From a virus (Duplodnaviria > Heunggongvirae > Uroviricota > Caudoviricetes): a stretch of DNA of 64,000 nucleotides. Below, in pieces: positions 9,182 through 61,428 of the stretch. A program made the translations under genes and the position numbers. Where the stretch lies: the IMG/VR virus record IMGVR_UViG_3300020049_013266, positions 10,815-74,814 of that record; one strand, given 5' to 3'. The notes below the pieces were generated by a model. That model was not told the DNA's origin. It was given only the letters and a program-made list of their open reading frames with translations, and made no database searches. Position 1 is the first letter of the stretch. Each line of letters starts with the position of its first letter.

Positions 9182-9186
9182 TTTTG

Positions 9187-9260: not shown

Positions 9261-9266
9261 TTTTAG

Positions 9267-9349
9267 TGGGAGTAGATGGGCTCGAACCACCTACCTATGC
9301 CGGTTACCAGATTTACAGTCTGGCGCTTATCCTGTTTAGCATTACTCCC
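9267..9349 (-). tRNA. tRNA-Tyr (anticodon GUA), type II
   Basis: Acceptor GGGAGUA/UACUCCC, D-stem GCU/AGC, anticodon stem CCAGA/UCUGG with loop CUGUAAA, long variable arm, T-arm GGUGG-UUCGAGC-CCAUC; 83 nt. Confidence 0.75.
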
Positions 9350-9392: not shown

Positions 9393-9533
9393 TTATATGT
9401 TATTTATATCATACGCCAATCCCTCCGCTTAAAAGCGAATAACTTAACGATAAATATAGTTTTGTTGTTTTCATACGGCAAATATATAATATATTTTTTA
9501 CATACAAGCTATTGTTTCAAATATTAATCGACC

Positions 9534-9567
9534 ACAAACATTTGTTGTCGTTTATTTTTTATCTTTG
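9534..9567 (+). promoter_or_regulatory. variant promoter element (CGACCACAAACATTTGTTGTCG plus TAtcTTTG -7 box)
   Basis: Degenerate palindromic version of the CAAACGTTTG element followed by TATCTTTG, 17 nt before the ATG at 9584. Confidence 0.5.
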
Positions 9568-33627: not shown

Positions 33628-34521
33628 TTATCTACGGAAGCTTTTTCCTTTGAATTCTATAATGTTGAACATTTTAAAAATTCTATCATACAATCGGCTG
33701 CCGTATTTTTCTTCAAATTCATCAAGTCCGGCTTGAATATCATTATCAAATCCATCTTTAAAATTACAGGTGATGTGAGTCATTAAATTATTCTTTTCGC
33801 GAACTTCCAGAATATCTTTCATTAAATTCATCTTTCCAAAATTAGATGCGTGGCGTTCGGTCTTAACATCATCGAAATACCTTTTTCCAGTATTCATCAT
33901 TTTATCAAACTCAGATCTCGTGATTAATTGCTCATTTGACGCAGGATTAATCTTTTCGAATAGGTTAACAACCTCGTTTGTAGAATATCCTTTGAATGAT
34001 TTCGATTTAATGCCTTTAAATATTTTTTCGAATGTGGCCATGACCGCTGTTTTTCCATTTCCAAAATTTCCAATAATCAAAAGTCCTTTATCAAAACTTG
34101 GCTGAGAAATATCCGACAGGTTTTTACAGAAGAAGAAATTATCATCCTTCAAGAAATAATACATGATAGGCTTTATGTTTTCCAGAATTTCATTGCTGTA
34201 AATAAACTCTTTACCGTGCAGCTCTTTGAATGTTTTCAAAAATAAATTCCAAAGTTCTTTTTTAGTAAACTTCTTTTCAACTTCAACAACTGACTCTCTC
34301 ACTTTTTGCCAATGCTTTGCTTGGTTCTCTTTTTGCTCCTCCGACTGAAAATGAATATCTTCAAACCTTTTCATCTGTTCTACTTCGTATTCCGTTAAAT
34401 CTTCTGGGGCTAAAGTTTTTAGAAAGTTGTATTTATTAAAACCGAAATCAGACTTGATTTTATTTATGGATAGGCTATCGGTTTCTTGTTCTGGTTGTGG
34501 TGGTTGCTGTTGATGATCCAT
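33628..34521 (-). CDS. DnaC/IstB-like AAA+ ATPase (putative helicase loader)
   Basis: Walker A GNFGNGKT, Walker B-like RYFDDV, sensor-like THITCNF; sits next to a replication-protein-like gene. Confidence 0.5.
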   Translation of the reverse strand: MDHQQQPPQPEQETDSLSINKIKSDFGFNKYNFLKTLAPEDLTEYEVEQMKRFEDIHFQSEEQKENQAKHWQKVRESVVEVEKKFTKKELWNLFLKTFKELHGKEFIYSNEILENIKPIMYYFLKDDNFFFCKNLSDISQPSFDKGLLIIGNFGNGKTAVMATFEKIFKGIKSKSFKGYSTNEVVNLFEKINPASNEQLITRSEFDKMMNTGKRYFDDVKTERHASNFGKMNLMKDILEVREKNNLMTHITCNFKDGFDNDIQAGLDEFEEKYGSRLYDRIFKMFNIIEFKGKSFRR

Positions 34522-35392
34522 TTGGCGTATTTTTTTTGATTAAAATTTGAGATATTTTTTCACGAAGTTTTGGCGCTGATAAAACATTTGACTTCCAGAA
34601 CTCTTGCTCTTTGCTGTTTCCGCTAAGAAAAGTATATGCGTCTCTAAGATTTTCTATGGTTACATTTTCTTTTTCAAACATTATCCGAATTGACGGAATA
34701 TAATTTTTATAAGTAGCATTTTTTTGAGCAGTACAAGGAGATTCTTTTTCTTGTAAATTTTTTATGAATAATAATTGGAACTTTCTGGCGATCTCGAAAT
34801 AAGATATAGCTTTTTCGTCAGCATCAATTTTATAATTATTAACCAAGAAAAATAATTTGTCGTCAGAAATTTTAATTTCGGACAAAAGAGAATTATTTAA
34901 TACAGTATTAAGTTTCTTGTTCTTTGTCTTATCTATATCTACTTCTTTATCTATATCTGCGATGTTTTGCGATGCTTCTGCGATCGGGGTGCGATCGGGG
35001 TGCGATGGGTACGCGATAGATAAAGCCTGATCTAAAGTGATTTCTCTTTTCATGTATCTCTCGTGAATCAAGGGATGCCAACGTTTTAAGTTACCAATTT
35101 CTCCAGACCTACTTTTGTCGTTACTGTCATTTTGAATATCATCTAATTGTTCGTTTAAAAAATCTATCACTATAAAATCATTAAAACATTTTATAATTCG
35201 TTTTGATATTAAACAATCCAAATGTTCTTTGTCTATTTCAATTTCGGCATCATTGTATGAAAGAACACATTTTTTGTTCCAGTAAATACAATTCAACCTC
35301 ATGAATCTTGCTTGTGTGATTTCTGGACATTTTTGAATTTTGCCCATCATCCAATCTTTAGGAGTGAATTTAAACCAAGGTAATTGTTCCAT
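34475..35392 (-). CDS. replication protein with DUF1376-like N-terminus
   Basis: N-terminal LPWFKFTPKDWMMGKI...ARFMRLNCIYW resembles the DUF1376 signature (W/YF.FY..DWL...L...GAY..L); it overlaps the start of the DnaC-like gene. An 11-bp tandem repeat lies at about 34970-35000. Confidence 0.45.
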   Translation of the reverse strand: MEQLPWFKFTPKDWMMGKIQKCPEITQARFMRLNCIYWNKKCVLSYNDAEIEIDKEHLDCLISKRIIKCFNDFIVIDFLNEQLDDIQNDSNDKSRSGEIGNLKRWHPLIHERYMKREITLDQALSIAYPSHPDRTPIAEASQNIADIDKEVDIDKTKNKKLNTVLNNSLLSEIKISDDKLFFLVNNYKIDADEKAISYFEIARKFQLLFIKNLQEKESPCTAQKNATYKNYIPSIRIMFEKENVTIENLRDAYTFLSGNSKEQEFWKSNVLSAPKLREKISQILIKKNTPNGSSTATTTTRTRNR

Positions 35393-40302: not shown

Positions 40303-40593
40303 TTAATTAAATTTTGGTTTGTAAGCGGTGATTACTGGTTCTCTGTTGTATGTGTACTGCTTTGTTCCGCAAATAGCACATTCTCTGCTCCATCGAGCTT
40401 TTTCGACATCCCTGTATCCGGCAAAACTCCAGTGAGGATCTGATCCCGCTCCATCCTGAACACTTCCGTATCCTTCTTTGACAGTTTCAGGATCATAAAT
40501 AGCTGCTTTGAATGAGTGGGTACAATTTTTTATTTTGTTTTTCTCCGACTCAATCTGTCTTTGTAATTCGTTTATTTTATCATTAGGATTCAT
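40303..40593 (-). CDS. hypothetical protein
   Basis: 96-aa ORF downstream of the integrase gene; 11-nt overlap. Confidence 0.4.
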   Translation of the reverse strand: MNPNDKINELQRQIESEKNKIKNCTHSFKAAIYDPETVKEGYGSVQDGAGSDPHWSFAGYRDVEKARWSRECAICGTKQYTYNREPVITAYKPKFN

Positions 40594-41836
40594 TACTGTT
40601 CCATTTGTTATGCATTATTTCAGCATATTCTTGTTTGCTTTTTTTGTTATAATGATTTAACATATTGCTGTTTTTGCTCCATCCCATAATGGCTGACAAA
40701 GTTTCGTTGTCAACTTTTCCATAGAAGTTGGACGCGAATGATTTGCGACAAACGTGCGAGGAAATAAGTTGCCACTTCCTGTAATAGCCAAAAACCTTAC
40801 GCTTACGTTTTTTATCAAACAACTTCCCGTACATCTGCTTATCTATTTCACAGATTTGGCAAATTGTTTTAATGTGAATATTGAAATCGGTTTTACTTAT
40901 TTTTGGTGGCAGATTACCGAAGTTTGATTCAATTACTTTTTTTAATACCGGATGAATGGGAACCACGATTCTTTTGCCTGTTTTCTGCGTTTTAATTTTG
41001 AATACACCATCTGAAATATTAGAAGTGTCTAATTTAGAGAAATCCCCAAATCTCATTCCTGAAAACACGCCAACCAAGAAGTTTTGCTTTGTAATATCCA
41101 ATTCGTAATTATCTGAAAAATCGTGATCAATAATGCTTTGTATTTCGGCTTCATTCAAATAAACTCCCTCAGCATCTTCGTCTTTATCGAAATAGATTCT
41201 TTGTTTAAACGAATTACTTACTTCGATATTGTGTTCGAGTGCGCGATTAAGGAAAAATCGGAACCGGCCAACGTGTCTTTCAATTGTGGAAACCTGGTAA
41301 AACTCAGTTTCTAAATAATCCGCAAATGATTTCAGGTCCGAAACGCGAATATTTCTCAACTGCAGTCGCTCTCCGATTACTGATTCATATTCCGAAACAA
41401 TGGAGACGAATTTTTTGTACTGGTTATGCAACGGCAATCCCATTTTTTTCTTACTTGATACATTCCAATCGTCAGCATGATTTTCCAGCCACCACAGCGC
41501 AAAATCTACTAAATATATAGTATGTGCCGGATTAATCATTTTTAACTCTTCTTTAGGGCGATTAAAGCTGTTTTTTATGGCAGATGCAACCCAGAATTTA
41601 TCAACTATAATTCCCCTGCTAAAATCGTTATTGTACTGTTTTAGAAGATCTGTTTTTAATTGTTGCAGCGAAATGTTCAATCCCGGATTATTAATAACGC
41701 TCTGATTATCTAAATCCCATTCAGCATCTTTCAACATGATATTTGTTGAACATGAAATATCCAATTTAGAATATCTCATTCTAACAAGGAGTTTCTTAAC
41801 CTCCTTTCTTCCTTGTAATGAAAATGTAATGTTCAT
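40583..41836 (-). CDS. int: tyrosine-type site-specific integrase
   Basis: 417 aa with a catalytic-domain signature: GMRFGD (Arg I), HVCRKSFASN (H..R box II), MGWSKNSNMLNHY (H/W...Y catalytic Tyr); N-terminal arm/SAM-like region. Confidence 0.7.
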   Translation of the reverse strand: MNITFSLQGRKEVKKLLVRMRYSKLDISCSTNIMLKDAEWDLDNQSVINNPGLNISLQQLKTDLLKQYNNDFSRGIIVDKFWVASAIKNSFNRPKEELKMINPAHTIYLVDFALWWLENHADDWNVSSKKKMGLPLHNQYKKFVSIVSEYESVIGERLQLRNIRVSDLKSFADYLETEFYQVSTIERHVGRFRFFLNRALEHNIEVSNSFKQRIYFDKDEDAEGVYLNEAEIQSIIDHDFSDNYELDITKQNFLVGVFSGMRFGDFSKLDTSNISDGVFKIKTQKTGKRIVVPIHPVLKKVIESNFGNLPPKISKTDFNIHIKTICQICEIDKQMYGKLFDKKRKRKVFGYYRKWQLISSHVCRKSFASNFYGKVDNETLSAIMGWSKNSNMLNHYNKKSKQEYAEIMHNKWNSNES

Positions 41837-48161: not shown

Positions 48162-48264
48162 GATAAGAAATAGCTGTTTTATCCTGTTGCTTCTTCAGTT
48201 TTGTGTTACCGCCCCCGAAGGGACACGCTTTGAGCCTAAAACCTTTTTATTGTCGCTCAAACGA

Positions 48265-48942
48265 CTATTTTATTCTTGAAACGTTGTAAATATCAAACAT
48301 TTTTCCACCTGCAACACTTTGCCATTTTAAACCAATAGCCTTAAATATTGAAGGATAACAACTAACACCAACTCCACCTTCGAAATAAGGTAAAACGCCA
48401 TACCCTGAACCATACCCAAAAATATCTCTATTTGATTTGTTTTTGTTTGCAGATTTATAAAGATTTGCTTTTAATACATCACTTTGGTTTAAAGCCTCAG
48501 CTATTGCAGTGCTTAATTTATCATAACCACAACCAGAAACATAACGACTTTTAAAATACTCACAATCGGTATTGCCTTTAGCATCTTTAAAAGAAACCCA
48601 TACTTCAGCAGTAGGATTTAATCCCCACATTTTAGACTTTGCCCACTCAACCGTTATTTTGATTTCAGTTATTTTAAATAACTTATTTTCAACACTTTTA
48701 ACTTCTTTTATCTTTTCAGAAAGTCTCAAGGCACTTTTTTCTTTTATTTTAGAAACAAGAACTTTTTTAAATTTACTAAAAGTCATTTCTTCAATTCCTT
48801 TAATCTCTTTTTTAGAAAATAAACCTCTATAGTAAGCATAATCCAAAAATGATTTTACATCTTTTTTTTCTTCATTAAAAGACAAGCTTTTTTTAAGTTC
48901 TACTTTTGATTCTCTATTTAATTTTGCTATAAGTGTTTTCAT
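48265..48942 (-). CDS. hypothetical protein (225 aa)
   Basis: Longest ORF in the small-gene region; Gly-rich C-terminal half. Confidence 0.5.
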   Translation of the reverse strand: MKTLIAKLNRESKVELKKSLSFNEEKKDVKSFLDYAYYRGLFSKKEIKGIEEMTFSKFKKVLVSKIKEKSALRLSEKIKEVKSVENKLFKITEIKITVEWAKSKMWGLNPTAEVWVSFKDAKGNTDCEYFKSRYVSGCGYDKLSTAIAEALNQSDVLKANLYKSANKNKSNRDIFGYGSGYGVLPYFEGGVGVSCYPSIFKAIGLKWQSVAGGKMFDIYNVSRIK

Positions 48943-50311: not shown

Positions 50312-50560
50312 TTAGTTTAATGTATTGTTGTTAAATGCTTCATAACATATACTTCTAATAGTAGAATCTAACATTGTTTTAGAATAGTATATTTTATTTG
50401 TTTCAAGTAATGCGTAAAGAGTTTTGATGTCCGCATTTTCAATTAATAATTCAAAAGTATTTTTCATGATGATAGTATTAAAATTAGTTCCTCGATTCCG
50501 TTTCAAACGTAGCCTTATAGACAAATCGAGGATTGTTCTTTTACTGCATTTCGCCAACAT
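50312..50560 (-). CDS. hypothetical protein (first gene of the long minus-strand block)
   Basis: 82-aa ORF facing the large noncoding region. Confidence 0.4.
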   Translation of the reverse strand: MLAKCSKRTILDLSIRLRLKRNRGTNFNTIIMKNTFELLIENADIKTLYALLETNKIYYSKTMLDSTIRSICYEAFNNNTLN

Positions 50561-51953
50561 AAAAGAGTATTATATAAATAAAGTCTCTAATAAATAGAGT
50601 AAATATAATCTATGTATTAAGCGTGTACCTTTGTTCGCACCCTGCAATCACTGTCTAAATAAATAGTAGCTTTATATGATACTTGTAACACCGCTTTTCA
50701 ATATGTCAAATAACTTGTAATGATAAACATGTAAGAGTTAAATACTGTTATTGTCTCTCTAACACATGGCAATATTACGTCATTAATTTGTTACCTGCAA
50801 CAAATTATATAATTATTTTTAACATTTATTCGATGTTAAACGTTTGTTGTCGGCTACGAAATACAAAACCTCAGCAAATACAAGGGTTTGAAGCAAATCA
50901 TTAAAAAGGCCTAAAACGACAAATAAACAATAGCAAAGTATCACATAACACAAAATAGGTTTATAATTATCCTATAAGGCCACAATTAAAACAATCCTCA
51001 CGCATAGAATAACACCAAACAAAAACATCCTGAAACACCACAATAAAACATCTACATAACAACAAAGCAAATACACTTAATATAAGACCATAAAACCAAA
51101 ACCACGTACAAAACCATCATATAGGAAAAACAAGCCAAATACCGCTCACAAAAACACCTTAAACACATCTTATTAATATACTCTATATACAGAGAGACAA
51201 ACACACGCTATTTTATAACGATTCCATAACCTAAAGTTATAGTAACCATAATCACAGGCTATAGGACAGCTTACAGTCTCTACCAACGTAGTAATAGCAA
51301 GGGTTTACGCCAAATGAGAATCGTATTTAGTTGCTGATTCTGTACATTGGTTTACAAAGTCGGAGTAATCGAGAACGCTAAACGCATAAAGCATTGTATT
51401 ATAAGGGTTTAATATTGGTTTATGCTAATCATACTAAGATTAACTATTTAATGAATAGGATAGGTTTAAGCCTGATTTGTAGATTGGTTTGTGATGTGAA
51501 CCCAACCACAGCAAGGCAAGCCGATTTGAAACGAATTAGAAAAGCAAAACCAAAAATAGACCCCGCCCCTGTTTTAAATTACGTTTTCGGATACGCAAAC
51601 CAGGGCGTCAGATGAGAGGTAGCCTCAACCCTCTACCTTACTCTACAGTTTACAAAGCCCCGTAGATACTCAGGTTGGGCGAAGATTGGCTGCGGTCGCT
51701 TGTAGGTCCTACGTAGCGTATCGCTGTCGATTATGGTTCCGGATGACGCTTAGTACGCCTGAGGGAGTTTTGATAGCTTAAACAGCTTTGTTTTGATCCG
51801 GCTGTTGAAGAATGCTGATACGCTGCAAAGCCCAGTAAATAGGCTTTGGTCAATACGTAAACAGTGAGGAGACAAAAAAAGGTACTCCGTGATAGTGTTT
51901 TATTGAATAATATATTGTACGTTTGTCAAATATTAATCTAATTAAATCGAAAA
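50561..51953. other. 1.4-kb noncoding regulatory hub / possible origin region
   Basis: No credible ORF. Contains the operator-like motif GGCAATATTACGTCA (50768-50782) and the palindrome AATTTGTT-N6-AACAAATT (50785-50806). It also holds the element TAAACGTTTGTTGTCG in reverse orientation (50837-50852). An A+C-rich, G/T-poor tract runs about 50990-51175, and a GC-rich (about 50%) structured segment about 51590-51880. A TAcgTTTG -7 box lies at 51918-51925, ahead of the plus-strand block. Confidence 0.6.
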
Positions 51954-52439
51954 ATGGGTAAAAAGGTGATTCTGCATTTATGCGCTGATCTGGGAAGCGA
52001 TAGTTTGTTTTATCAATTATCAGACGATTACGAAGTAATAATGATTGGTGAGGAGATTGGAGTTGAGAACTATAATCCTCCGGCAAACGTTCACGGGATT
52101 ATTGCCAATCCGGTTTGTACTGAGTTATCTACTGCTAATGGATTTCATAAAGAAAATGATTTAAAGAAAGGGATGTTTCTGGTTGATCACTGTTTCAGGA
52201 TTATAGAAGTTGCAAAACCTGTTTGGTGGGCTATGGAAAATCCTGCTAATGGCAGATTGAAGGAATTGATCTATACACGTCCCGGGAGGCCTAAACCGGC
52301 TCTGGCTTTTCTTCATAAAAGTGCTGTGAATTTGATACCGGAATTTCAATGGGCGAAGGACATGATAAAATGCGATGCTGATATTCGTTCAATGTGTTCT
52401 CAGGGTTTTGCAAAAGCTTTTTTTGAATCTAATGAATAG
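51954..52439 (+). CDS. divergent C5-methyltransferase-like protein (paralog 2, possibly degenerate)
   Basis: 161 aa; IANPVCTELSTANG (PC motif IV-like), ENPANG (motif VI-like), C-terminal GFAKAFF (motif X-like); the motif I Gly-loop is degenerate (HLCADLGS). Confidence 0.45.
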   Translation: MGKKVILHLCADLGSDSLFYQLSDDYEVIMIGEEIGVENYNPPANVHGIIANPVCTELSTANGFHKENDLKKGMFLVDHCFRIIEVAKPVWWAMENPANGRLKELIYTRPGRPKPALAFLHKSAVNLIPEFQWAKDMIKCDADIRSMCSQGFAKAFFESNE

Positions 52440-52685
52440 CATCCCTATAGTAGGTTTGCAGATATAAACTTAAATAATCAACAAAAATGAAAACAGAAGA
52501 ACAACTACAAAACGACCAGCACTATTTTGATTTAGGAAAACGGTATCAAAAAAACAAGGATAAGAACAGAGTCAATTTTTCACATTGCTTATTGTTTTTC
52601 CTTCTTGGCGGGTCGTTGGCGATATGTTTGAGAAATGCAGGATTAATCTAACACGCACTGGATGGCGTTTATTAAATAAAAAAAT

Positions 52686-52919
52686 ATGAAAGCACAAGAA
52701 GCAAGACAAATAGCGGAAGAAACAAAGTCTGCAGGAGATAGCGTTGCTATTAAAGAAATACAAGAGTATATTAAAGTTGAAGCCATAAAAGGAAATCTTT
52801 CGATTAATTGTTACATCCCTATAAATAATGAGATTAAAATTCATTTTGAAAATTTAGGATATACTGTTCATTTAGTTAATAGTGGACCAAACGAACAATG
52901 CTATAAAATTAGCTGGTAA
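52686..52919 (+). CDS. hypothetical protein
   Basis: 77-aa ORF between the two MTase-like genes. Confidence 0.4.
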   Translation: MKAQEARQIAEETKSAGDSVAIKEIQEYIKVEAIKGNLSINCYIPINNEIKIHFENLGYTVHLVNSGPNEQCYKISW

Positions 52920-52934
52920 TATTAAATAAAAGCT

Positions 52935-53585
52935 ATGGAAAAACTAATATTAATTGGTTGCGAGGAAAGCGGAACCGTTCGTGATGCTTTTTCTAAAATG
53001 GGACACGAAGCTGCAAGTTTGGATTTATTGCCGACTCTTTCTCCAGGAACACACATTCAAGAAGATATTATCGAATATTTGGAATCTATGCCGGACAATC
53101 ATTTCGATTTAATTGGCCTTCATCCAGAGTGTACGAAATTGTGTGTTTCCGGAAATCATGTTTATGCTGCCGGAAAGCCAAAACATCAAATGAGGCTCGA
53201 TCAGGTAAAATGGGTTGAGAAACTCTGGGATTTAATGAAGCGAAAAGGAAAAAGCGGTTATTTGGAAAATCCGGTTGGTGTTCTCCCAAGCCTTTCGAAT
53301 TTACCGAAACCTCAATATATTCAGCCTTTCGAATTTGGCGAGGATGCAAGCAAGAAAACAGCACTTTTTCTGCATAATTTGCCAAAACTCGTCTCTTCAA
53401 ATAGATTTCAGGGGCGAATTGTTGAATTCCCGAAAGGAAGCGGAAAAATGGTCGAGCGCTGGAGTAACCAAACAGATTCCGGACAAAATAAATTAGGTCC
53501 ATCAGAAGACCGATGGAAAGTCCGCTCGAAGACCTATGATGGAATTGCAAATGCTTTTGCTGATCAGTGGCTAAACAATAATTAA
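52935..53585 (+). CDS. TRD-less C5-cytosine methyltransferase-like protein (paralog 3)
   Basis: 216 aa, collinear with the 30120..30821 protein: LIGCEESGTV (I), GHEAASLDL (II), GLHPECTKLCVSG (IV), LENPVGVL (VI), FEFGEDASKKTALFL (VIII-like), YDGIANAFADQW (X-like). Confidence 0.6.
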   Translation: MEKLILIGCEESGTVRDAFSKMGHEAASLDLLPTLSPGTHIQEDIIEYLESMPDNHFDLIGLHPECTKLCVSGNHVYAAGKPKHQMRLDQVKWVEKLWDLMKRKGKSGYLENPVGVLPSLSNLPKPQYIQPFEFGEDASKKTALFLHNLPKLVSSNRFQGRIVEFPKGSGKMVERWSNQTDSGQNKLGPSEDRWKVRSKTYDGIANAFADQWLNNN

Positions 53586-53594
53586 AAAAATAAA

Positions 53595-53855
53595 ATGGAA
53601 AACAAACATAAGATACACTACCATGAATGGAAAGCTTTTAAAAAGTATTTCGGACTCCATAATGCTTCAATCGGGGCCATTTTAGGAATAAATCCTAGAT
53701 CCGTTCAAAATAGTACAGCCCCATCATATCAAGGGTCTTTTCCTATATGGGCAAAACTGGCTATTTGGGTGTGGAAAAAATCGCTGGAGAAGGAAGTCCT
53801 GGCAAAAGCAGAGCTTATCAGAGAAATTAATGAGTTAAAGAAAAAAACATCATGA
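53595..53855 (+). CDS. hypothetical protein (possible HTH)
   Basis: 86 aa; the segment ASIGAILGINPRSVQN looks like a helix-turn-helix. Confidence 0.4.
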   Translation: MENKHKIHYHEWKAFKKYFGLHNASIGAILGINPRSVQNSTAPSYQGSFPIWAKLAIWVWKKSLEKEVLAKAELIREINELKKKTS

Positions 53856-54394
53856 ACCAAGTAAAAGATTTTTTAGAATATATTTTCAATGCTTTTAAAA
53901 TTTTCATAATAGTTCAGCCTTGGCAAAATGCATTAATTGTTAGGAACGGAAAAATTAAAAAAGAAGTATCTGGAGGAATTTATTTTAAATTACCGTATTT
54001 CGATAGTGTATTTGTTCAGGAAAATAGATTAAGAGTTGTGATGTTCTCGATTCAGACAGTAACAACAAAAGATGGACACGCCATAACAGTATCTACTTCT
54101 TTGGGATATTCAATAAAATCTATACAAAAATTGTACAAAACCCTATATCATCCTGAAACAACGCTTGGAAATATAGCAATGGGTTTTTTAGCAGATTACA
54201 TATACAAAAATGAGCTAAATACTATATCTCCTCTTGGTATAGAAACACTAATTCTTAATGAATTGAAAAAAGAAGATTACGGATTAGATTTTAAATATGT
54301 TAAAATAACAAACTTCGCAGCGGTTAGAACAATTCGATTGATACAGGATCAGAGCTGGGGATTTGAAGGGCTTTCAATGAATGATAAAAAATAA
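53852..54394 (+). CDS. second SPFH/band-7 domain protein (short, single N-terminal transmembrane helix)
   Basis: QPWQNALIVRNGKIKKEVSGGIYFKLPYFDSVFVQENRLRVVMFSIQTVTTKDGHAITVSTSLGYSI follows the SPFH core pattern (..NG......G..F..P....V......Q.V.TKD......V.Y.I). Confidence 0.5.
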   Translation: MNQVKDFLEYIFNAFKIFIIVQPWQNALIVRNGKIKKEVSGGIYFKLPYFDSVFVQENRLRVVMFSIQTVTTKDGHAITVSTSLGYSIKSIQKLYKTLYHPETTLGNIAMGFLADYIYKNELNTISPLGIETLILNELKKEDYGLDFKYVKITNFAAVRTIRLIQDQSWGFEGLSMNDKK

Positions 54395-54423
54395 TTGATG
54401 TTTTTCTTGTGAAATCAAAATAT

Positions 54424-54439
54424 ATGACGTAATATTGTC
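54424..54439 (-). promoter_or_regulatory. operator-like motif TGACGTAATATTGTCA (reverse complement of the 7645 site)
   Basis: Third copy of the 16-bp site. Confidence 0.45.
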
Positions 54440-54471
54440 ACATCAAAATGATTTTTGGGGAATCGTTTTGG

Positions 54472-54557
54472 TTAAGTGTTGGCTGAGTGGTTGAAAGCAA
54501 CGGGCGACCATACCCGTGGGAGGTAATTACCCCGAAGGTTCGAATCCTTCACACTTA
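54472..54557 (+). tRNA. tRNA-like gene (type II, Ser-like body) with non-canonical anticodon loop CGACCAU
   Basis: Acceptor UAAGUGU/ACACUUA, D-arm GCU-GAGUGGUUGAA-AGC (Ser-like), anticodon stem ACGGG/CCCGU with a loop lacking U33, long variable arm, T-arm GAAGG-UUCGAAU-CCUUC; no encoded CCA. Confidence 0.45.
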
Positions 54558-54737
54558 TCTTAGCAAGGTATAAACATTAAGGAAAATTCGTCACAGGTTT
54601 ATATTAAGTTGCAGACGGACCTACATGCTACAGGTTAAAAAGGCTTACTCATAAAGTCTAGCAAGCACAAACTAACGAGGAAAGCCGGATGCGATAACAT
54701 CAATTCCGGTTTAATTTAACCAAAAACCAAAATAACC

Positions 54738-54947
54738 ATGAGTAAAAAAGCGTATTACAAGTGTGAAGGATGCGAATTGACTTTCTCGTCTGAATTGTTA
54801 CAAATGAACGACGAACTTGAATTGACTTGTGAGGAATGTCTTGAAGAGGCGAAACGCAATAGGCAATCGTACAAATTTCTTATTCTTGGATGCGCTTTTA
54901 TGGCTTCTGGAATTATTTTCTTAATAATAAAATTCTGCTCACGATGA
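54738..54947 (+). CDS. small zinc-ribbon plus transmembrane protein
   Basis: CEGC...CEEC pairs, then a C-terminal hydrophobic helix. Confidence 0.4.
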   Translation: MSKKAYYKCEGCELTFSSELLQMNDELELTCEECLEEAKRNRQSYKFLILGCAFMASGIIFLIIKFCSR

Positions 54948-55093
54948 AAAACTATAAAGAGTTCGCTTATGGAGCCGGAATACTTATTCTTCATATTTTG
55001 TTCGGAATCGTATCGCATCAAATTGTGATATTTTCTATTTCAGGTTTTATTCTGGCAGTTTTAACCACTTATGTACTTTGTAAATTAAAATAA
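54946..55093 (+). CDS. small two-helix membrane protein (49 aa)
   Basis: ATGA-coupled start at 54946 (MKNYKEF...); the listed ORF 54890..55093 overlaps the previous gene and is probably over-extended. Confidence 0.35.
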
Positions 55094-55095
55094 AA

Positions 55096-55467
55096 ATGGA
55101 AATAGTAGGGAAAATTAAACGCATAGGTCCAGATCAACAAGTATCTGCCTCGTTTACCAAAAGAGAATTGGTTATTACCACCGACGAGCAATATCCGCAA
55201 CACATTTTGACTGAATTCACACAAGATAAATGTGATTTGCTTGACCCATATAAAATTGGCGAATCAGTAAAGGTTTATATAAATTTACGGGGGAGAGAAT
55301 GGGTTAATCCACAAGGCGAGACAAGATATTTTAACTCGATTCAAGGCTGGAGGATAGAAAGATTACAAGTACAAGGGCCGGTATCACCATCTCCGGAAGC
55401 GAGCACCCAAAATTTTAATCCGGAAACAAATACAAACGAAGACGAGCCGGACGATCTTCCGTTTTAA
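55096..55467 (+). CDS. DUF3127-family protein
   Basis: MEIVGKIKRIGPDQQVSASFTKRELVITTDEQYPQHILTEF...VKVYINLRGREW...RYFNSIQGWRIE matches the Bacteroidetes DUF3127 pattern. Confidence 0.55.
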   Translation: MEIVGKIKRIGPDQQVSASFTKRELVITTDEQYPQHILTEFTQDKCDLLDPYKIGESVKVYINLRGREWVNPQGETRYFNSIQGWRIERLQVQGPVSPSPEASTQNFNPETNTNEDEPDDLPF

Positions 55468-55478
55468 TTAAAAAAAAT

Positions 55479-55679
55479 ATGGACACAAAAAAACTAATAA
55501 GTTTTAGACATGTTTCAGAGGTATTGACAGGAAATAAAGAAACTATTAGAGGAGACAGACCGAATGTAAGATATTCTGGTCCTTTGAACGAACTATTTGA
55601 TTTTTTGGAGGATTGGTCTTCCAGGAACTCAAAATCCAAAGAAGTAAATATTACTGTAAAAACCAAAAAATCTCAATAG
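55479..55679 (+). CDS. hypothetical protein
   Basis: 66-aa ORF. Confidence 0.4.
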   Translation: MDTKKLISFRHVSEVLTGNKETIRGDRPNVRYSGPLNELFDFLEDWSSRNSKSKEVNITVKTKKSQ

Positions 55680-55687
55680 CAAAGTCT

Positions 55688-55897
55688 ATGGGTAGAAATA
55701 AGTCTAAACAAGTATTAAGACAGGAATCTAAGGACCGGAAGATTACAATCGAGTATTGTAGGCAGTTTTCCGTTTTAGAAATAGTTTCTGTTCTCCGGAA
55801 CCACAATGAAAGCAACTTGTGGACCAAGACTAAATTCGAATGGACTCTGAAAGATTGGGAAGACTATTTTTCTCTAAAAAAATTAAATCAAATATAA
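55688..55897 (+). CDS. hypothetical protein (start moved to the internal MGRNKSK ATG)
   Basis: The listed ORF 55613..55897 overlaps the previous gene by 67 nt; the internal ATG at 55688 avoids the overlap. Confidence 0.35.
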   Translation: MGRNKSKQVLRQESKDRKITIEYCRQFSVLEIVSVLRNHNESNLWTKTKFEWTLKDWEDYFSLKKLNQI

Positions 55898-56446
55898 ATG
55901 AACAACAGCCCTAAAATATACTTTATAAAAAACATCGATGGTAAATTTTACAATGCCAGAGAAGATGAATGGTATTCTAATTTTATTCATGCCAATTACG
56001 AACGAGATATTAAAGTAATAAAATCATATCTGGGATTGGCTAAATTTTCTGACTGCGAAATGCACACCATTACAGAGAATGATTTCCAAGAGGCTTTGGC
56101 CGGAAAAACTACAAATGTAGTATTGTGTGGATCGTATTTTGCTGAACAATTAAAAGAGTTAATGTTTAAGCTTCCGACAATCTCCCAAGTAAATAAAACC
56201 ATGTATTTGAAGTGTAAAAATGCATTAGAAGCATTGGAGCCTTTTACAAAAATGCACATGTCGTTTATAGAAAGAAAGGAAAATGATACTGATGAAGTTC
56301 GCGGACACTACGAAGAATACATCCATGAGGTTGGGAAAATTGAAATGTACCAAACCGGAGAGGTCGCATCAATACTAAAAGCCTATCACTTAGACAGAAG
56401 CTCTATGCTTGGCATCGCGAGTAAGGTAATTAAACACAGTAAGTAA
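55898..56446 (+). CDS. hypothetical protein
   Basis: 182-aa ORF; adjacent genes are spaced 0-3 nt. Confidence 0.45.
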   Translation: MNNSPKIYFIKNIDGKFYNAREDEWYSNFIHANYERDIKVIKSYLGLAKFSDCEMHTITENDFQEALAGKTTNVVLCGSYFAEQLKELMFKLPTISQVNKTMYLKCKNALEALEPFTKMHMSFIERKENDTDEVRGHYEEYIHEVGKIEMYQTGEVASILKAYHLDRSSMLGIASKVIKHSK

Positions 56447-56448
56447 TC

Positions 56449-56745
56449 ATGCTAAACAAGAAAACTTTCTGCGAAATAATAGAACTGCTAAGGCAGCAAA
56501 TATTATTTGATAACGAATCCGCTGAAAATATACAGAGAATGTTTGGAGTGGTCCAGAAGTGCCGGTACAAAAACCAATACGCTATAAAGGCCCTGATGAA
56601 ACTACTTAATTTGCACTTCCCAAAAGACGAAGAAGGATTTTGCAGAATTGAACACTATTGTTTTTATTTGGAATTCGGAAAAATGGAAGATGGAATAATT
56701 ACTCCGGAAGAACTGTATGATTCACTAACTAAACCTAAAGTATAA
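56449..56745 (+). CDS. hypothetical protein
   Basis: 98-aa ORF. Confidence 0.4.
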   Translation: MLNKKTFCEIIELLRQQILFDNESAENIQRMFGVVQKCRYKNQYAIKALMKLLNLHFPKDEEGFCRIEHYCFYLEFGKMEDGIITPEELYDSLTKPKV

Positions 56746-56999
56746 TGGAAATCACATTAAATGTTTTTATATTCAGAACAAAGGAGCAACTAGAACAAAC
56801 TGAAATAGGAATAGAAGTTCCTCTTTCTGAATGCGATTTGGAAGAAAGAACCTTTTACAATATCAATTACATTGCGCCTGATTCTAATGGAACCCAATAT
56901 TGTTGTGTAGCGAGTAATGGAGATGAATTCACCGTTAACAAATCGTACCAAGAAGTAAAGGAGCTGATAAATAATGCACGCCTATCGAAATTCAATTAG
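56745..56999 (+). CDS. hypothetical protein
   Basis: 84-aa ORF; its ATG overlaps the upstream stop. Confidence 0.4.
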   Translation: MEITLNVFIFRTKEQLEQTEIGIEVPLSECDLEERTFYNINYIAPDSNGTQYCCVASNGDEFTVNKSYQEVKELINNARLSKFN

Positions 57000-57002
57000 A
57001 TT

Positions 57003-57797
57003 ATGGAAGGAGATAAACCAAAGAAAAGGAGGTTGTCCGGGATGAAAAAAAATCCTTACGCCAAGAAAAAGAAGCAAAAAAGAACCTACAAAGCTAAAGT
57101 TTACAAGGGCAGAATAATAATGGGGGTGAACCAAACCCAAAGAGAAAGACTGAATGAATTCTTGAAGGTTCGGGAAGGCGAAACGTTAGAGCAGTGGAAG
57201 AAACGAACTACAATGAATCGTGTTTCAGATGTTGACGAAGCGGAAGAATTAAGACTCACCAAGAAACTTCTTGTTTATCACCATAAAAAGGATAAGGCAA
57301 AATACGAACAGGACAACAAATATATTCGGGTCCAGAAAATACCAATATATTTTGATTTTATGCGTTATTACGGAGTGGTAGTGAATTATTTCTCAGTTAA
57401 GTATGGCGTTAGAATTGAGGATTACCAGATGGGATTTTATTTCTACTCCAACATACCGTTCACAAGAGAAAGATTTGAAAACGCTGCAGTTCTTCATTTC
57501 GGAACCAAAAGAGGAAAATTGAGTCATTTCATAAGTAACGGCTACCTGGAGGAAATAATCAAAAGAGTAAAAAGGTACAAAGAAGAAGATGAATACGAAA
57601 GAACAAGCCTGTATCGACTAACAAGCACTTTTACTCGAAAACTAACTGAAATATATGGTGTTCTTGGAAAAATGAACACAATCAGGACAGATCAACATCC
57701 ATTTATAAACCTTAGTCCGGAAATCCAACAAATACTAACGGATTTAAATGACGAAATTACAGATATTCAAACCGGCAGAAAGCCACAGTCAAGCTAA
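57003..57797 (+). CDS. hypothetical protein with strongly basic N-terminus
   Basis: 264 aa; KKRR/KKKKQKR-rich first 40 residues. Confidence 0.45.
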   Translation: MEGDKPKKRRLSGMKKNPYAKKKKQKRTYKAKVYKGRIIMGVNQTQRERLNEFLKVREGETLEQWKKRTTMNRVSDVDEAEELRLTKKLLVYHHKKDKAKYEQDNKYIRVQKIPIYFDFMRYYGVVVNYFSVKYGVRIEDYQMGFYFYSNIPFTRERFENAAVLHFGTKRGKLSHFISNGYLEEIIKRVKRYKEEDEYERTSLYRLTSTFTRKLTEIYGVLGKMNTIRTDQHPFINLSPEIQQILTDLNDEITDIQTGRKPQSS

Positions 57798-57811
57798 TAA
57801 ATTAAACAACT

Positions 57812-58087
57812 ATGAGTATAGAGAACAGAAAAGGAATGGTTTCCATAAGTAAAGATGTATTGGTTGATAATCCTAAAATAAGTTACCTAAAAAGTGTATT
57901 CTCTAATTTTTTCCCAGTAGGTTCAGAGTCCGAAATGAATCATCAGTTTTATGAAGGTGTTAGATTCTACGGATACAGCCCTTTTTTTAGAGAACTTGAA
58001 AAGGGAGAAAAAATTCCCCGCTATGAAATGAATTTTAGAATGGACGGAGAGGAAGTCATTTTTACAGGAGTAAAAGAAATATTATAA
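57812..58087 (+). CDS. hypothetical protein
   Basis: 91-aa ORF. Confidence 0.4.
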   Translation: MSIENRKGMVSISKDVLVDNPKISYLKSVFSNFFPVGSESEMNHQFYEGVRFYGYSPFFRELEKGEKIPRYEMNFRMDGEEVIFTGVKEIL

Positions 58088-58095
58088 AAACCCGA

Positions 58096-58821
58096 TTGCA
58101 AGGAAGTGCTACAAAAATTATGAATAAAGAACAATTAATTGCCAAAGGAATTAAGCATAAATTTAACGGAAAAGAAACATTGTTTCAAGTAGAAAGCTTG
58201 AATAAACATTTTGATGGACTGGTGATCCATGAATCTGACATCTTAACAGATGAATTTGAAGACCAATACGATGAATACGTAAAGGCCGGTGATGTGAATT
58301 TTGATTCAGCTACTCCAAATAAAGTGGATCCAGAAGAAGAAAGGGAATTTGAAGAAGAACCTATTTCCATTAAAGCAGAAACTATTCATGGAAATCAAAT
58401 AGTTATAGCTGATTTTAAACCTACAGGGATGACTTTTGAAGAAGCAGAAGAACTTCTTTCTAAAGGAAAATTAGTTTCTTTGCCAGAATGGGAAGGTTTT
58501 TGGTTTAAAAACATCAAGAAAGACGAATTACTTGTGTTTACAAAAGATGGTGAAATTTTAGACACGCCTTTCGATGAATACAAATTAAGAAACGACTGGG
58601 TTAAAGCAGAGCCTACTCCGGAGCAAAAAGAAAAACTTAACCAGTACTTCGAAAATTTAGAAATAAATGGATTAAAGGTAGTTGACCCGGTAATCGAAAG
58701 TAACAAGGTAGAAAATTTGGAGCCAGTTATTCCTCCAGCAGCTGCAAAAGAAGGAGTTTTAAAAACCGAAGATATTGGACTTCCAAAGCCAAAAGAAAAG
58801 AAAGCTGCTAATAAAAAGTAA
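58096..58821 (+). CDS. hypothetical acidic protein
   Basis: 241 aa; the last gene of the plus-strand block before a terminator. Confidence 0.45.
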   Translation: MQGSATKIMNKEQLIAKGIKHKFNGKETLFQVESLNKHFDGLVIHESDILTDEFEDQYDEYVKAGDVNFDSATPNKVDPEEEREFEEEPISIKAETIHGNQIVIADFKPTGMTFEEAEELLSKGKLVSLPEWEGFWFKNIKKDELLVFTKDGEILDTPFDEYKLRNDWVKAEPTPEQKEKLNQYFENLEINGLKVVDPVIESNKVENLEPVIPPAAAKEGVLKTEDIGLPKPKEKKAANKK

Positions 58822-58894: not shown

Positions 58895-59194
58895 CTAAAA
58901 TACTAAAACGATGTCTGGGTAAAAAACCAGTATGTATGGATTTCCATCTTGTGTGAATGGAGTTGTTTTGTATTTGTCAAACACAACTTCTGCTCCCTCG
59001 GTTAATACGTAACTCCCATCATCATATCTTGGGGTTCCTTGCCCAACGGAAACTACACGACCTCTTTTCTGTTTTTCGTTAGCATCAACTATTCCAGTGA
59101 TATCTATTCCTCCTGCAGTTTTGTTTTCATTGAAAATCTCCTCCACAACTACAATCATGTTTAATGCCTGTCCTTTGAATTTATTTGGTGTCAT
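58895..59194 (-). CDS. groES: co-chaperonin GroES (cpn10)-like
   Basis: 99 aa; ...EEIFNENKTAGGIDITG...RGRVVSVGQG...VVFDKY...ILVF... follows the GroES pattern (mobile loop, AGGI, VG.G, roof hairpin). Confidence 0.65.
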   Translation of the reverse strand: MTPNKFKGQALNMIVVVEEIFNENKTAGGIDITGIVDANEKQKRGRVVSVGQGTPRYDDGSYVLTEGAEVVFDKYKTTPFTQDGNPYILVFYPDIVLVF

Positions 59195-60743
59195 GTGCGA
59201 ATCTTTTTAAAGTGATAACGTTATCAGTTCTTAATAAATTATTTGAAGCAGAAGCAGATGTAATTAAAGCTGTCTTAATACCTTTTGCGGTATCGATTAT
59301 TCCTGCTTCAAACATATCTACATTTTCGTATTTCTTTACGTCATATCCAATAGGGTATTTAGGATATTTTTCTCCTGTAGATTTTACGCCAGCATTTTCC
59401 ATTATTTTCATAAACGGAGCTTTTATGGACCAAGCTGTAACATCATCAATAAGAGTATTTTCGTTTTCAAAAATACTTAGTAATGCAATTCCTCCTCCAG
59501 CAACAACTCCACCGTCCTTAGAAGATCTTACAGCGCAAATAGCGTCATCAATACGTGCTACTTTTTCTTCCACTTCACTAGGGGTAATTCCTCCTACGAA
59601 TACAGTAGAAATTCCTCCAGAAATTTTAGAAATTCTTTCACGGATATAATTCTTTTCTGATTCGTTTGTCTGTAGTTTTATTTGAGCGGCCAAGTCTAAA
59701 ATTTTGCCTTCAATTTTTTCTTTGTCAATATTTTTGTCGGCAGTAATTACTGTATCTTTTTTTCCAATTTCAATACGCTCACATGATCCAAGATAAACCG
59801 GCTCCTTTCCATCATAATTTGTTCTTGAAATACCTTCCAAAACTTCACACCCAAGAATTAAAGCCAAATCTTTCATCGTTTCTCTTCCTTTTTTACCTTG
59901 ATAAGGAGGGCGAATAATGCAGAATGGATAATTGTGCTTGATTCTGTTTTCCAAAATCATATTGGAAATATCATGGGTCATATTTGAAATAATAACAAGA
60001 GGTCTTCCCTGACCGGCAGAATAATCCAGAAACGGAATAACTTCATTTGCGGTTTGGAAATTTATTGATGAGCAAAGAACCAATGGATTATCAAAAACAA
60101 CTGACTGAGTTTCGTTTACATTGATGAATCCTTCGTGTAGGTAGCCGGAATCAATCGGATTTCCTTCAATATGCTCCACATACGTTTCATCTGTAAAACT
60201 TCTTTTGTGTGATACAATTCCATGTTCTCCGGCTTTAATGAAGGCTTCTTGTACAATTTTTGCAATTTCTTCATCTCCGTGAGCAGATGTTTTTGCAATG
60301 TCAAACATTAATTCATCTGTAACCGGAATAGCTATGGAGTCAATGTATTCTAAAACTTTTAAAACCGATTCGTCAATTTTGTTTTTTATTTCGATAGAAG
60401 AAGTGCCTTTTTTTAATTCTTCAAGAGAGTTTTTGAAGAAAGCTTGTGTAAGCACGCACACCAAGGTGGTGTTGTCTCCTACGAGTTCAAATTGCTTTTT
60501 CGTGGCCTCTTTCAATATTTCACAGGCTATATGTTCCATGGCATCTTCGAAATAAAGCTGTTCCAAACTATCAAAACCATCTGCGGTTATATTAGGAAGT
60601 CCTCCGGCTGTCTCAAACAAAACATTAGAACCTCGATATCCCATAGTACTTCCAATGATGTCGCAACTCTTGTTAAGACCGCTTAATAATTTCTCCTTTG
60701 CCTCATCTCCAGAGACAACTTCTCTTAAAATAGTATTACTCAT
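59181..60743 (-). CDS. groEL: chaperonin GroEL (cpn60)-like
   Basis: 520 aa. N-terminal region collinear with GroEL (GYRGSNVLFE..GGLPNITADGFDSLEQLYFED..EHIACEILKE, and GDNTTLVCVLTQA corresponding to GDGTTTATVLAQA). Equatorial C-terminal region GIIDTAKGIKTAL matches GILDPTKVTRSAL. No GGM tail. Confidence 0.75.
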   Translation of the reverse strand: MSNTILREVVSGDEAKEKLLSGLNKSCDIIGSTMGYRGSNVLFETAGGLPNITADGFDSLEQLYFEDAMEHIACEILKEATKKQFELVGDNTTLVCVLTQAFFKNSLEELKKGTSSIEIKNKIDESVLKVLEYIDSIAIPVTDELMFDIAKTSAHGDEEIAKIVQEAFIKAGEHGIVSHKRSFTDETYVEHIEGNPIDSGYLHEGFINVNETQSVVFDNPLVLCSSINFQTANEVIPFLDYSAGQGRPLVIISNMTHDISNMILENRIKHNYPFCIIRPPYQGKKGRETMKDLALILGCEVLEGISRTNYDGKEPVYLGSCERIEIGKKDTVITADKNIDKEKIEGKILDLAAQIKLQTNESEKNYIRERISKISGGISTVFVGGITPSEVEEKVARIDDAICAVRSSKDGGVVAGGGIALLSIFENENTLIDDVTAWSIKAPFMKIMENAGVKSTGEKYPKYPIGYDVKKYENVDMFEAGIIDTAKGIKTALITSASASNNLLRTDNVITLKRFAHDTK

Positions 60744-60761: not shown

Positions 60762-61265
60762 TTATATGTGATCCCATACTTGATTTAATTTTATTCTGCT
60801 AATGTGAGCGCAACTAACATTGAATATTTTAGACAAAGCTACTCCAGTTAATACACTAGTTCTTATTTCTAACACATCTTTTTCTGTAAGTTTTGAGAAC
60901 CCATTTTTTTCGCCTCTCAATGCAGAATTTAATCCGTTTACCCATGCATGATCCACGTTTTCTTTAGTCGTACTCCATTCTAAATTCCAATCATTATTGT
61001 TGGTTTTATCCCCGTCCTTGTGATTTACTTCGGGTTTGTTTTCAGGATTTGGAATAAATGCCATCGCAACTAATCGATGAACTTGGAAATGCTTTCTTTT
61101 TAATCCATATAAAGTCACTCTAAAATATCCTTTGGTTGTTGTTGACAATGTTAGATTTTTAATTTTTTTTACTTTGGTGGATCCGTTGAATTTTAAATTT
61201 CTAACATTTCCAGAATTACTAACCTGATAATTCTCATAATCAATAATGTTTGCCCATTTTTCCAT
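60762..61265 (-). CDS. HNH homing endonuclease (paralog of 4369..5040)
   Basis: VHRLVAMAFIPNPENKPEVNHKDGDKTNN, the classic HNH_3 motif; N-terminal NUMOD4-like YENYQVSNSGNVRN; C-terminal HTH-like region. Confidence 0.75.
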   Translation of the reverse strand: MEKWANIIDYENYQVSNSGNVRNLKFNGSTKVKKIKNLTLSTTTKGYFRVTLYGLKRKHFQVHRLVAMAFIPNPENKPEVNHKDGDKTNNNDWNLEWSTTKENVDHAWVNGLNSALRGEKNGFSKLTEKDVLEIRTSVLTGVALSKIFNVSCAHISRIKLNQVWDHI

Positions 61266-61389: not shown

Positions 61390-61428
61390 CGACAACAAAC
61401 GTTTGCTGTCATTAAATTAATATCTTTG
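61390..61428 (+). promoter_or_regulatory. conserved promoter element (CGACAACAAACGTTTG plus TAtcTTTG -7 box)
   Basis: Fourth same-orientation copy; 28 nt before the ATG at 61456. Confidence 0.55.

Follow-up and report, generated by a model that had tools for sequence, protein, structure and literature searches.

A conserved kilobase of non-coding sequence between divergent early promoters in a clade of uncultured Bacteroidota phages

The control regions of temperate phages, including OL/OR of lambda and P22 and the RNA immunity leaders of the P4 type, have back-to-back outward promoters and palindromic operators in genomes that encode an integrase. Rho-utilization (rut) sites and the Rho-dependent early terminators of the lambda type (tR1 and tL1) have in common a stretch of at least 80 nucleotides (nt) that is C-rich, poor in G, unstructured, and not translated, just downstream of divergent early promoters, and the large phage-encoded RNAs of Rfam (GOLLD, ROOL, and HEARO) are several hundred nucleotides long and GC-rich relative to the genome. 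Cellulophaga phage phi14:2 has two long, abundant early RNAs that are non-coding and have no known function; they come from long intergenic regions, which are transcribed rightward, and abundantly, from the earliest time point (bioRxiv 10.1101/2020.03.07.982082). We describe here a gene-free region, referred to as the hub, at positions 50561 to 51953 of a 64,000-nt stretch (the window) of IMG/VR record IMGVR_UViG_3300020049_013266, and compare it with these systems. We identify it as the early control region of a Bacteroidota phage, uncultured and podovirus-like, that is distantly related to the Flavobacterium 'elemo' phages and carries a crAss-type muzzle-protein domain.

The hub is the divergence point of the leftward and rightward gene blocks, and comparison with its relatives shows two divergent promoters of predicted host type that would fire outward from it, P_L leftward into a long operon that includes the replication-initiation genes and P_R into the rightward operon. 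Between them is a non-coding module of about 1 kb that, to judge from the alignments, is conserved as a unit by the clade, in the order late-promoter palindrome, A/C tract, core with a 294-nt spacing, and GC-rich domain (Table 1). Whereas temperate phage control regions have a repressor and cro pair, here there are about 1,050 nt of conserved non-coding sequence between the promoters, and no CI-like gene adjoining the hub was identified with Pfam or PHROG. The phi14:2 g004-g005 and g005-g006 intergenic regions are alike in being long and gene-free (1.4 to 1.7 kb) and in belonging to the early region of a phage of Flavobacteriia that has crAss-like virion parts, but they have no sequence similarity to the hub, are A/T-rich rather than A/C-rich, and lack a GC-rich domain. 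A further difference is that the 1990-amino-acid (aa) protein of the window lacks the DxDxD motif of the crAss-type virion RNA polymerase and has no PDB or Pfam match. As the best single reading, to which we give somewhat less than even weight, we favor a long RNA transcribed rightward, either non-coding or a leader, in which an unpairable A/C platform at the 5' end would engage Rho or another single-strand RNA binder.

The module was compared across eight lineages, namely the window and its relatives L021/L022, L020/L025, L024, L026, L034, L035, and L036, all of which are metagenomic and none cultured; seven full lineages were used for the core, and some comparisons cover six or seven lineages only. 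L021/L022 and L020 were reached through the two homologs closest to the first rightward gene, and in them the upstream DNA aligns to the hub at 85 to 87% and 71% nucleotide identity, respectively, although the protein is only 69 to 70% identical. An invariant 20-mer located L024 and L026 in JGI metagenomes, and a conserved 182-aa protein encoded 4 kb downstream led to L034, L035, and L036; L023, from the metagenome scan, was rejected as a chance match. All of the hubs are gene-free, 1.4 to 1.7 kb long, and positioned between divergent operons with their parts in the same order, and the adjoining genes vary among lineages whereas the hub itself does not. Identity to the window is 0.71 to 0.74 for the core, 0.70 to 0.73 for the 182-aa gene, 0.69 to 0.89 for the P_L block, and 0.58 to 0.65 for the tract, such that by this measure the core is conserved as well as the best conserved flanking gene.

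The distribution of the module appears to be narrow. A search with nhmmer did not find the core in the elemo phage, in phi14:2, or in the distant carriers of the 182-aa protein (L037 to L042), and homologs of the methyltransferase at 57 to 67% identity (L001 to L018 and L031 to L033) are in other contexts that lack the hub. Neither the hub nor the L036 hub (by BLAST) nor the 182-aa protein has a match among 50,697 phage records, and scans of IMG/VR with a 25-mer, the invariant 20-mer, a two-block pattern, and two neighbor proteins were empty, finding no member of the clade. Within the window, the module has no significant similarity or complementarity to the remaining sequence.

Several observations indicate that the hub does not code for protein. 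Its longest open reading frame (ORF) is no more than 73 aa, and we rejected this one as a gene since the frame lacks codon periodicity and is broken by stops in the homologous regions of the relatives; a search with a chimeric six-frame 'protein', aimed at spurious ORFs across the element, returned nothing. The conserved core has 2 to 13 stops per frame in all six frames of every lineage, and its substitutions have no 3-base periodicity, with divergence of 0.34, 0.31, and 0.30 at the three codon phases. Judged by a shared open frame together with third-position bias, the module does not behave as a protein-coding gene, in agreement with the initial annotation, which had seen no plausible ORF in the hub and had regarded the single listed one as spurious.

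The A/C tract is, from its composition, the strongest clue to whether the module acts as RNA or as DNA. Its most extreme 186 nt have an A+C fraction of 0.806 and 5% G, against a window mean of 0.50 (standard deviation 0.059) and a next-best value of 0.70, and are the extreme of the 64 kb. Positions 50990 to 51175 had been described as almost only A and C with very few G or T; with 97 A, 50 C, 10 G, and 29 T (79% A+C), the extreme A+C content and the scarcity of G (5%) hold, but that of T (16%) was overstated. In the seven lineages compared, the tract has 45 to 51% A, 22 to 28% C, 6 to 9% G, and 15 to 23% T (a C/G ratio of 2.6 to 4.4), with pairwise identity of only 56% and lengths of 221 to 294 nt; its composition is thus apparently fixed while sequence and length turn over. 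A-to-G differences are depleted, being 13% of differences in the tract versus 27% in the core, and as plus-sense RNA the tract has a minimum free energy (MFE) of only -3 to -15 kcal/mol per 200 to 260 nt. Because the composition of one strand is kept without constraint on its sequence, the constraint likely acts on a single-stranded molecule and not on duplex DNA.

By composition the tract also has the properties of a Rho-utilization sequence, with C exceeding G over at least ~80 nt, little structure, and no translation. Its inability to fold as plus-sense RNA and its C/G ratio of 2.6 to 4.4 over more than 200 nt are what suggest a Rho loading site. It differs from known rut sites in being far longer, with that ratio maintained over 220 to 290 nt, and from lambda tR1 and tL1 in that no nut or boxA/boxB-like elements are recognized; moreover, the proximal promoter P_R bypasses the tract, unlike the arrangement at lambda-type terminators. 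G-free A/C-rich translational leaders, such as tobacco mosaic virus omega and the CA-multimer enhancers, are likewise G-poor single strands that are unable to fold, although here no conserved ORF follows the tract.

The core and the GC-rich domain contrast with the tract in how they are conserved. Core matches in nhmmer have E values of 1e-86 to 1e-95 in seven of seven full lineages, the anchor positions 51356 and 51650 are exactly 294 nt apart in six of the seven, and invariant runs of 13 to 25 nt include would-be wobble positions. The central 20-mer of the inverted repeat within the core is invariant in all eight lineages, and the changes in its outer arms favor different strands in different lineages and do not discriminate between RNA and DNA or between strands; as RNA it could form a hairpin whose 7-nt loop is conserved, and as DNA it could be a dyad. 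The GC-rich domain is present in seven lineages and largely replaced in L024. The stretch from 51561 to 51851, at 49.5% GC, is the most GC-rich 291-nt stretch of the window (mean 33.7%), followed by the tRNA cluster at 47.4%, and 51590 to 51880, which had been put at about 50% GC and far above average, has 47.8%, bearing out that description. GC-rich islands in AT-rich genomes usually mark RNA genes, and we count this one, whose GC content exceeds that of the tRNA cluster, in favor of an RNA gene.

Table 1. Features of the hub, with positions in the window
Feature	Position	Strand	Remarks
Untranslated leader of the long leftward operon	50561..50765	-	Between the inferred start of P_L and the ATG at 50560; first minus-strand ORF at 50312-50560
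P_L, class-A promoter core TGACGTAATATTGCCAT	50766..50782	-	Near-consensus -7 box TAATATTG at 50770-50777
Palindrome AATTTGTT-N6-AACAAATT	50785..50806	.	8-bp arms; overlaps the -33 TTG of P_L; conserved in 6 lineages
Degenerate copy of the class-B palindrome	50831..50852	.	18/22 positions; no TAnnTTTG box follows
Conserved box CAGCAAATACAAGG	50872..50885	.	Left edge of the A/C tract; identical in 5/6 covering lineages, L020 differs at two positions
A/C-rich, G-poor tract	50890..51190	+	Most extreme part 50982-51167
Conserved island (C/T)ATATAAGA(C)	51080..51088	.	ATATAAG identical in 7/7 lineages amid variable sequence
Linker	51191..51339	+	Moderately conserved, including CCAACGTAGT and GCAAGG; pairwise identity 0.55-0.64
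Conserved core	51340..51650	+	Invariant blocks AAGTCGGAGTAAT (51357-69), TAATCATACTAAGATTA, CGATTTGAAACGAATT, GAAAAGCAAAACCAAAA, ACCTTACTCT (51635-44)
73-aa ORF	51394..51615	+	Spurious; no Pfam or PHROG match
Inverted repeat G(C/T)TAATC-ATACTAA-GATTAAC	51424..51444	.	5-7 bp arms; invariant 7-nt spacer/loop
GC-rich 3' domain	51651..51810	+	Invariant GGCGAAGATTGG (51678-89), CGATTA, GCTTAAAC (51776-83)
Stable hairpin specific to the window	51684..51732	+	-23.5 kcal/mol, z -3.9; z +0.6 to -1.1 in five relatives
Hairpin CAAAGCC-N9-GGCTTTG	51826..51848	+	In window, L021, weaker in L035; absent in L034, L020; no U-tract after
P_R -7 box TACGTTTG (TAnnTTTG)	51918..51925	+	28 nt upstream of the ATG at 51954

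The Bacteroidota promoter consensus in the published literature has a -7 element TAnnTTTG and, approximately 19 to 21 nt upstream of it, a -33 element TTG, and the promoters predicted in the hub conform to this primary-sigma pattern. The P_L box, which we take to resemble the TAnnTTTG element, has five of its six specified bases, with a TTG 20 nt upstream, and the P_R box is the only canonical -7 box that is kept at one alignment position, in seven of the eight lineages, the eighth (L024) having TAATATTG. P_L belongs to a class (A) with the motif TGACGTAATATTG[CT]CA, of which there are three copies in the window where 0.19 would be expected by chance (7644-7660 and P_L itself on the minus strand, and 54425-54441 on the plus strand, before an odd tRNA gene); all point into transcription units, and the motif is found again in relatives. 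A related box, TATATTTGCCGTATG, faces the tRNA cluster. The 8-bp-arm palindrome over the -33 element is likely the operator of P_L.

Class-B promoters are defined by a 22-bp palindrome, CGACAACAAACGTTTGTTGTCG, followed by 9 nt and then TA..TTTG. Full copies head the genes at 1759, 7737, 9584, and 61456, of which that at 9584 begins the virion and tail block, including the muzzle-type protein, and that at 61456 is an 801-aa ORF without a family match at the position of the elemo-phage terminase gene; from these locations we regard class B as the late (structural-gene) promoters. The palindrome occurs at 1689-1710, 7697-7718, 9529-9550, and 61390-61411, where it overlaps the -33 elements of the structural and terminase-gene promoters, and it is likely the binding site of a late-gene regulator. 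The motif AACGTTTGTTGTCGG occurs 11 times in the window at up to three mismatches, against 1.6 expected, and CGTTTGTTGTCGG, within the hub copy of the palindrome, is invariant in six of six lineages covering the region. The conserved box at the left edge of the tract is possibly the region of an RNA start, or a weak leftward -7 box (TGTATTTG, minus strand). Divergent early promoters with operators had been among the initial candidates for this region, and they are now substantiated by the P_R box in seven of eight lineages, the threefold use of the P_L class, and the palindrome over the -33 element; the palindrome with 8-bp arms and both operator-type motifs that had been noted are likewise real, the motifs being repeated above chance.

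If the favored reading holds, transcription would proceed rightward, from a start just to the right of the class-B palindrome at approximately 50870 to 50890, to give an RNA of about 0.9 to 1 kb, which could be a long leader or a long non-coding RNA in its own right. The 5' third of this RNA, G-poor, C-rich, and unable to base-pair, would be a Rho loading (rut) site or a landing pad for a single-stranded-RNA-binding protein, and the core would act through its primary sequence as a set of asymmetric binding sites rather than through a compact fold. In engaging Rho or another single-strand RNA binder, the RNA could be a decoy, or a Rho-dependent attenuator placed before the rightward early operon. 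The rightward direction is suggested by the class-A (leftward) and class-B (rightward) promoters that are back to back at 7.6 kb and 9.5 kb, because these pairs drive rightward genes from the palindrome side and the layout of the hub is alike. The plus strand is also slightly favored by two-sided covariation, with nine pairs (a count reached by 3 of 500 shuffles) against six (78 of 500) on the minus strand. Phage phi14:2 is a precedent for abundant early RNAs of this kind in Flavobacteriia phages, although its regions are not homologous to the hub.

This reading departs from the structured GC-rich RNA that had been pictured earlier, as there is no Rfam match and no convincing conserved fold. 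A search of Rfam 15 gave no gathering-level match in the hub, with only three chance matches of 12 to 17 bits at E values up to 10, and in the hubs of seven relatives none matched the module; of the two sequence comparisons that the initial annotation had proposed, that with Rfam thus found nothing and that with host genomes, made with one 20-mer and described below, found chance matches only. GOLLD, ROOL, and HEARO do not match even at E = 10, and their helices are dense and supported by covariation, which is not so here. Relative to dinucleotide shuffles the GC-rich part has z scores of +0.10 (plus) and -1.34 (minus) in the window and of about 0 in all relatives on both strands, so that it folds no better than shuffled sequence and the multiple local hairpins once described for it are not upheld, and the sole very stable hairpin is not conserved (Table 1).

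Over 500 columns of the eight sequences, a set too small to test covariation statistically, RNAalifold predicts 28 pairs at -5.6 kcal/mol on the plus strand and 39 pairs at -14.1 kcal/mol on the minus strand, both weak energies. The predicted structures are 88% and 89% paired, respectively, and since they were derived from the same sequences, the counts of two-sided pairs given above are biased upward. For the core, the column-shuffle z is -1.5 (plus) and -2.9 (minus), the single-sequence MFE z is about -1.5 on the plus strand, and in a blind scan of column pairs for stacked helices that covary, the two strands were alike in giving wobble-driven noise. Two candidate pairings were rejected, a long-range helix between GGAGTAA and TTACTCT, which L035 breaks without compensation, and a hairpin between GAAGATTGG and CGATTA, which is significant in the window only.

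We note, however, that several points weigh against a rightward RNA. No conserved canonical -7 box starts a transcript into the module from either direction, the hub copy of the class-B palindrome lacks a -7 box, and a terminator scan of the hub found none. The comparisons above give no convincing conserved fold on either strand, and covariation is slightly above shuffles on both; some one-sided changes (CCUCUC with GGGGYGGG, and the outer pairs of the 21-nt repeat) favor the minus strand. The proposed connection to Rho is drawn from base composition only. A more ambitious and rather unlikely version is that the module represents a new class of phage long non-coding RNA, whose first 200 to 350 nt are a composition-selected, unpairable strand that captures host Rho or another single-strand RNA binder and whose length-invariant core recruits phage or host proteins, the two together forming a decoy or an anti-termination device built from the early control region. 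As an alternative to this version, the module might be a P4-like RNA immunity system that takes the place of a protein repressor.

The chief competitor, which we consider possible but distinctly less probable than the rightward RNA, is a cis-acting DNA site for a multi-protein complex, such as a pac or cos site, a terminal-repeat junction, or another nucleoprotein assembly, in which the invariant blocks would be protein-binding sites at fixed spacing. The exact 294-nt spacing, the asymmetric invariant blocks, and the one invariant inverted repeat fit such a site, as do the lack of a conserved promoter reading into the module and of convincing RNA structure on either strand. Short contigs also break in or near the hub, with L021 and L022 starting in the tract, L026 ending in the core, and L043 starting 600 nt to the right, but these break points are not coincident, and the hub is internal in contigs of 65.7 kb and 74.8 kb, the latter being the single JGI contig from which the window comes. 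The hub has neither repeated binding motifs nor iterons, and the terminase gene lies at a distance of 10 kb; a strand-asymmetric composition such as the tract keeps while its sequence is not conserved is also difficult to account for in duplex DNA.

A long leftward untranslated leader seems doubtful. This would run from a promoter near the right end of the hub into the replication-gene operon, the C-poor (G+U-rich) minus-sense tract keeping Rho from terminating a 1-kb leader. The minus-sense tract has 6 to 9% C, RNAalifold gives a lower energy for the minus strand, where some C/U versus G changes also fit G-U pairing, and ribozymes process the leftward transcript (Pistol in the window, and hammerhead III candidates in L020 and L035). 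However, there is no conserved leftward -7 box to the right of the module and P_L is already downstream of it; only the tract and not the core is C-poor, and two-sided covariation is weaker on this strand.

That the hub is a primary or secondary replication origin, with the tract as an unwinding or priming zone, is improbable. Cumulative GC skew has its minimum at approximately 50 to 52 kb, at the hub, which is non-coding and lies between divergent promoters so that transcription could activate it, but this minimum coincides with the switch in coding strand and is therefore not independent evidence of an origin. The tract is not unusually AT-rich (~30% GC), and the hub has no iterons or tandem repeats of the type found at origins recognized by lambda O or SPP1 G38P. 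A classical iteron array is instead found at 34930-35020, with six GCGAT repeats about 10 to 11 nt apart, including TGCGATCGGGG in 2.5 copies, preceded by AT-rich TATCTA repeats, inside the DnaD-like replisome-organizer gene (34475-35392, minus strand) and beside the gene for a DnaC-like loader; this is the probable origin. The initial annotation had listed an origin at the hub, which these results do not support, and of the skew analysis it had proposed, the minimum does fall at the hub and mirrors the switch in gene orientation.

A still weaker case, and a very improbable one, can be made for an attP site, or for host DNA on which the integrase would act; this too had been suggested. The GC content is well above the genome mean, an integrase is encoded at 40583-41836, and the fixed length with several conserved blocks resembles an intasome site. 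The integrase gene is, however, 9 kb away, no tRNA or transfer-messenger RNA (tmRNA)-like element is present in the hub, and the lineages differ in the GC-rich part, most of which is replaced in L024. One 20-mer scanned against 185,579 species genomes (GTDB) had only chance matches, in a Pedobacter repeat, a Chitinophagaceae coding region, and a Lactiplantibacillus sequence, and the segment is part of the backbone of the phage relatives themselves. Hidden small proteins or recoded genes are the least credible of all, for although one frame (KSKTK..HPC.KLRF..LPYS) is open for about 40 codons in five lineages, the lineages do not share a start codon for it, no suppressor tRNA is encoded in the window, and the stops, even substitutions, and invariant runs through wobble positions described above speak against coding.

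The leftward genes, from 50560 to 24385, include those for a sliding clamp, the DnaC-like loader and DnaD-like organizer, the integrase, and a methyltransferase, and the rightward genes, from 51954 to 58821, code for methyltransferase-like proteins and other small products. A 1452-aa virion protein has 46% identity to its counterpart in the Flavobacterium 'elemo' podoviruses, also matches proteins of Cellulophaga, Tenacibaculum, and Maribacter phages, and has the C-terminal domain of the crAss muzzle protein. A GroES and GroEL pair, a feature shared with elemo phages, is encoded at 58895-60743 (minus strand), and after it comes a gene for an HNH/NUMOD4 endonuclease (60762-61265, minus strand). 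There are three paralogous phrog_757 DNA-methyltransferase-like genes (51954-52439 and 52935-53585, plus strand; 30120-30821, minus strand); the hub-adjoining paralog (161 aa) lacks about 45 residues of its ~205-aa homologs and, on this comparison, may be degenerate.

The rightward operon of the relatives codes for anti-defense sponge proteins, with Pfam matches to Tad2-like, Acb2/Tad1 hairpin, and Sequestin families (L034, 12325-12618; L035, 14091-14336; L036, 8474-8680 and 8764-9252), and these genes fit an immediate-early role of the operon driven by P_R. In L024, a DUF805b RNA motif (5871-5902, plus strand; 38.8 bits, gathering score 35.6) lies between a class-A promoter and the first rightward gene. 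The odd tRNA gene of the window, at 54473-54559 (plus strand, 43.6 bits), is directly downstream of a class-A copy and has an 8-nt anticodon loop, with a 4-base anticodon ('acca') called by ARAGORN, so it may be frameshift-suppressor-like or degenerate; in relatives the same operon has tRNAs and weak permuted-tmRNA matches below the gathering score (L024, 6716-6945; L026, 142-454). The tRNA cluster at 8915-9349 (minus strand) has five genes (Leu-TAG, Ser-GCT, Ser-TGA, Leu-TAA, and Tyr-GTA) and is the second most GC-rich stretch of the window.

Self-cleaving ribozymes are found in the leftward early operon. The window has a Pistol ribozyme (RF02679; 62.8 bits, E 4.6e-9) at 48204-48266 (minus strand), abutting the stop codon of the ORF at 48265-48942. 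Candidate type III hammerheads, just below the gathering score of 48.5, are present in the leftward early transcript of L020 (1768-1822, minus strand; 45.7 bits, E 5e-7), where the candidate is in the leader inside the hub, and of L035 (3554-3608, minus strand; 40.9 bits, E 1e-5), where it follows the first gene. Different self-cleaving ribozymes thus seem to take the same role within the clade.

Phage genomes are tightly packed, and a clade-wide kilobase of non-coding DNA that is conserved at the level of a core gene must do something important. Selection on a single-stranded nucleic acid rarely leaves so clean a trace as a composition that is held through drift of the sequence. Bacteroidota do not use Shine-Dalgarno sequences in the usual way and have an unusual Rho, and the tract may provide a handle on how their phages deal with host transcription termination or RNA-binding factors. 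A by-product of this analysis is the promoter and operator grammar predicted for an uncultured phage group, including class A, class B and its palindrome, together with the probable position of the origin. Beside the unexplained early long RNAs of phi14:2, the module would be a second, sequence-defined example, with invariant blocks that could be used as probes.

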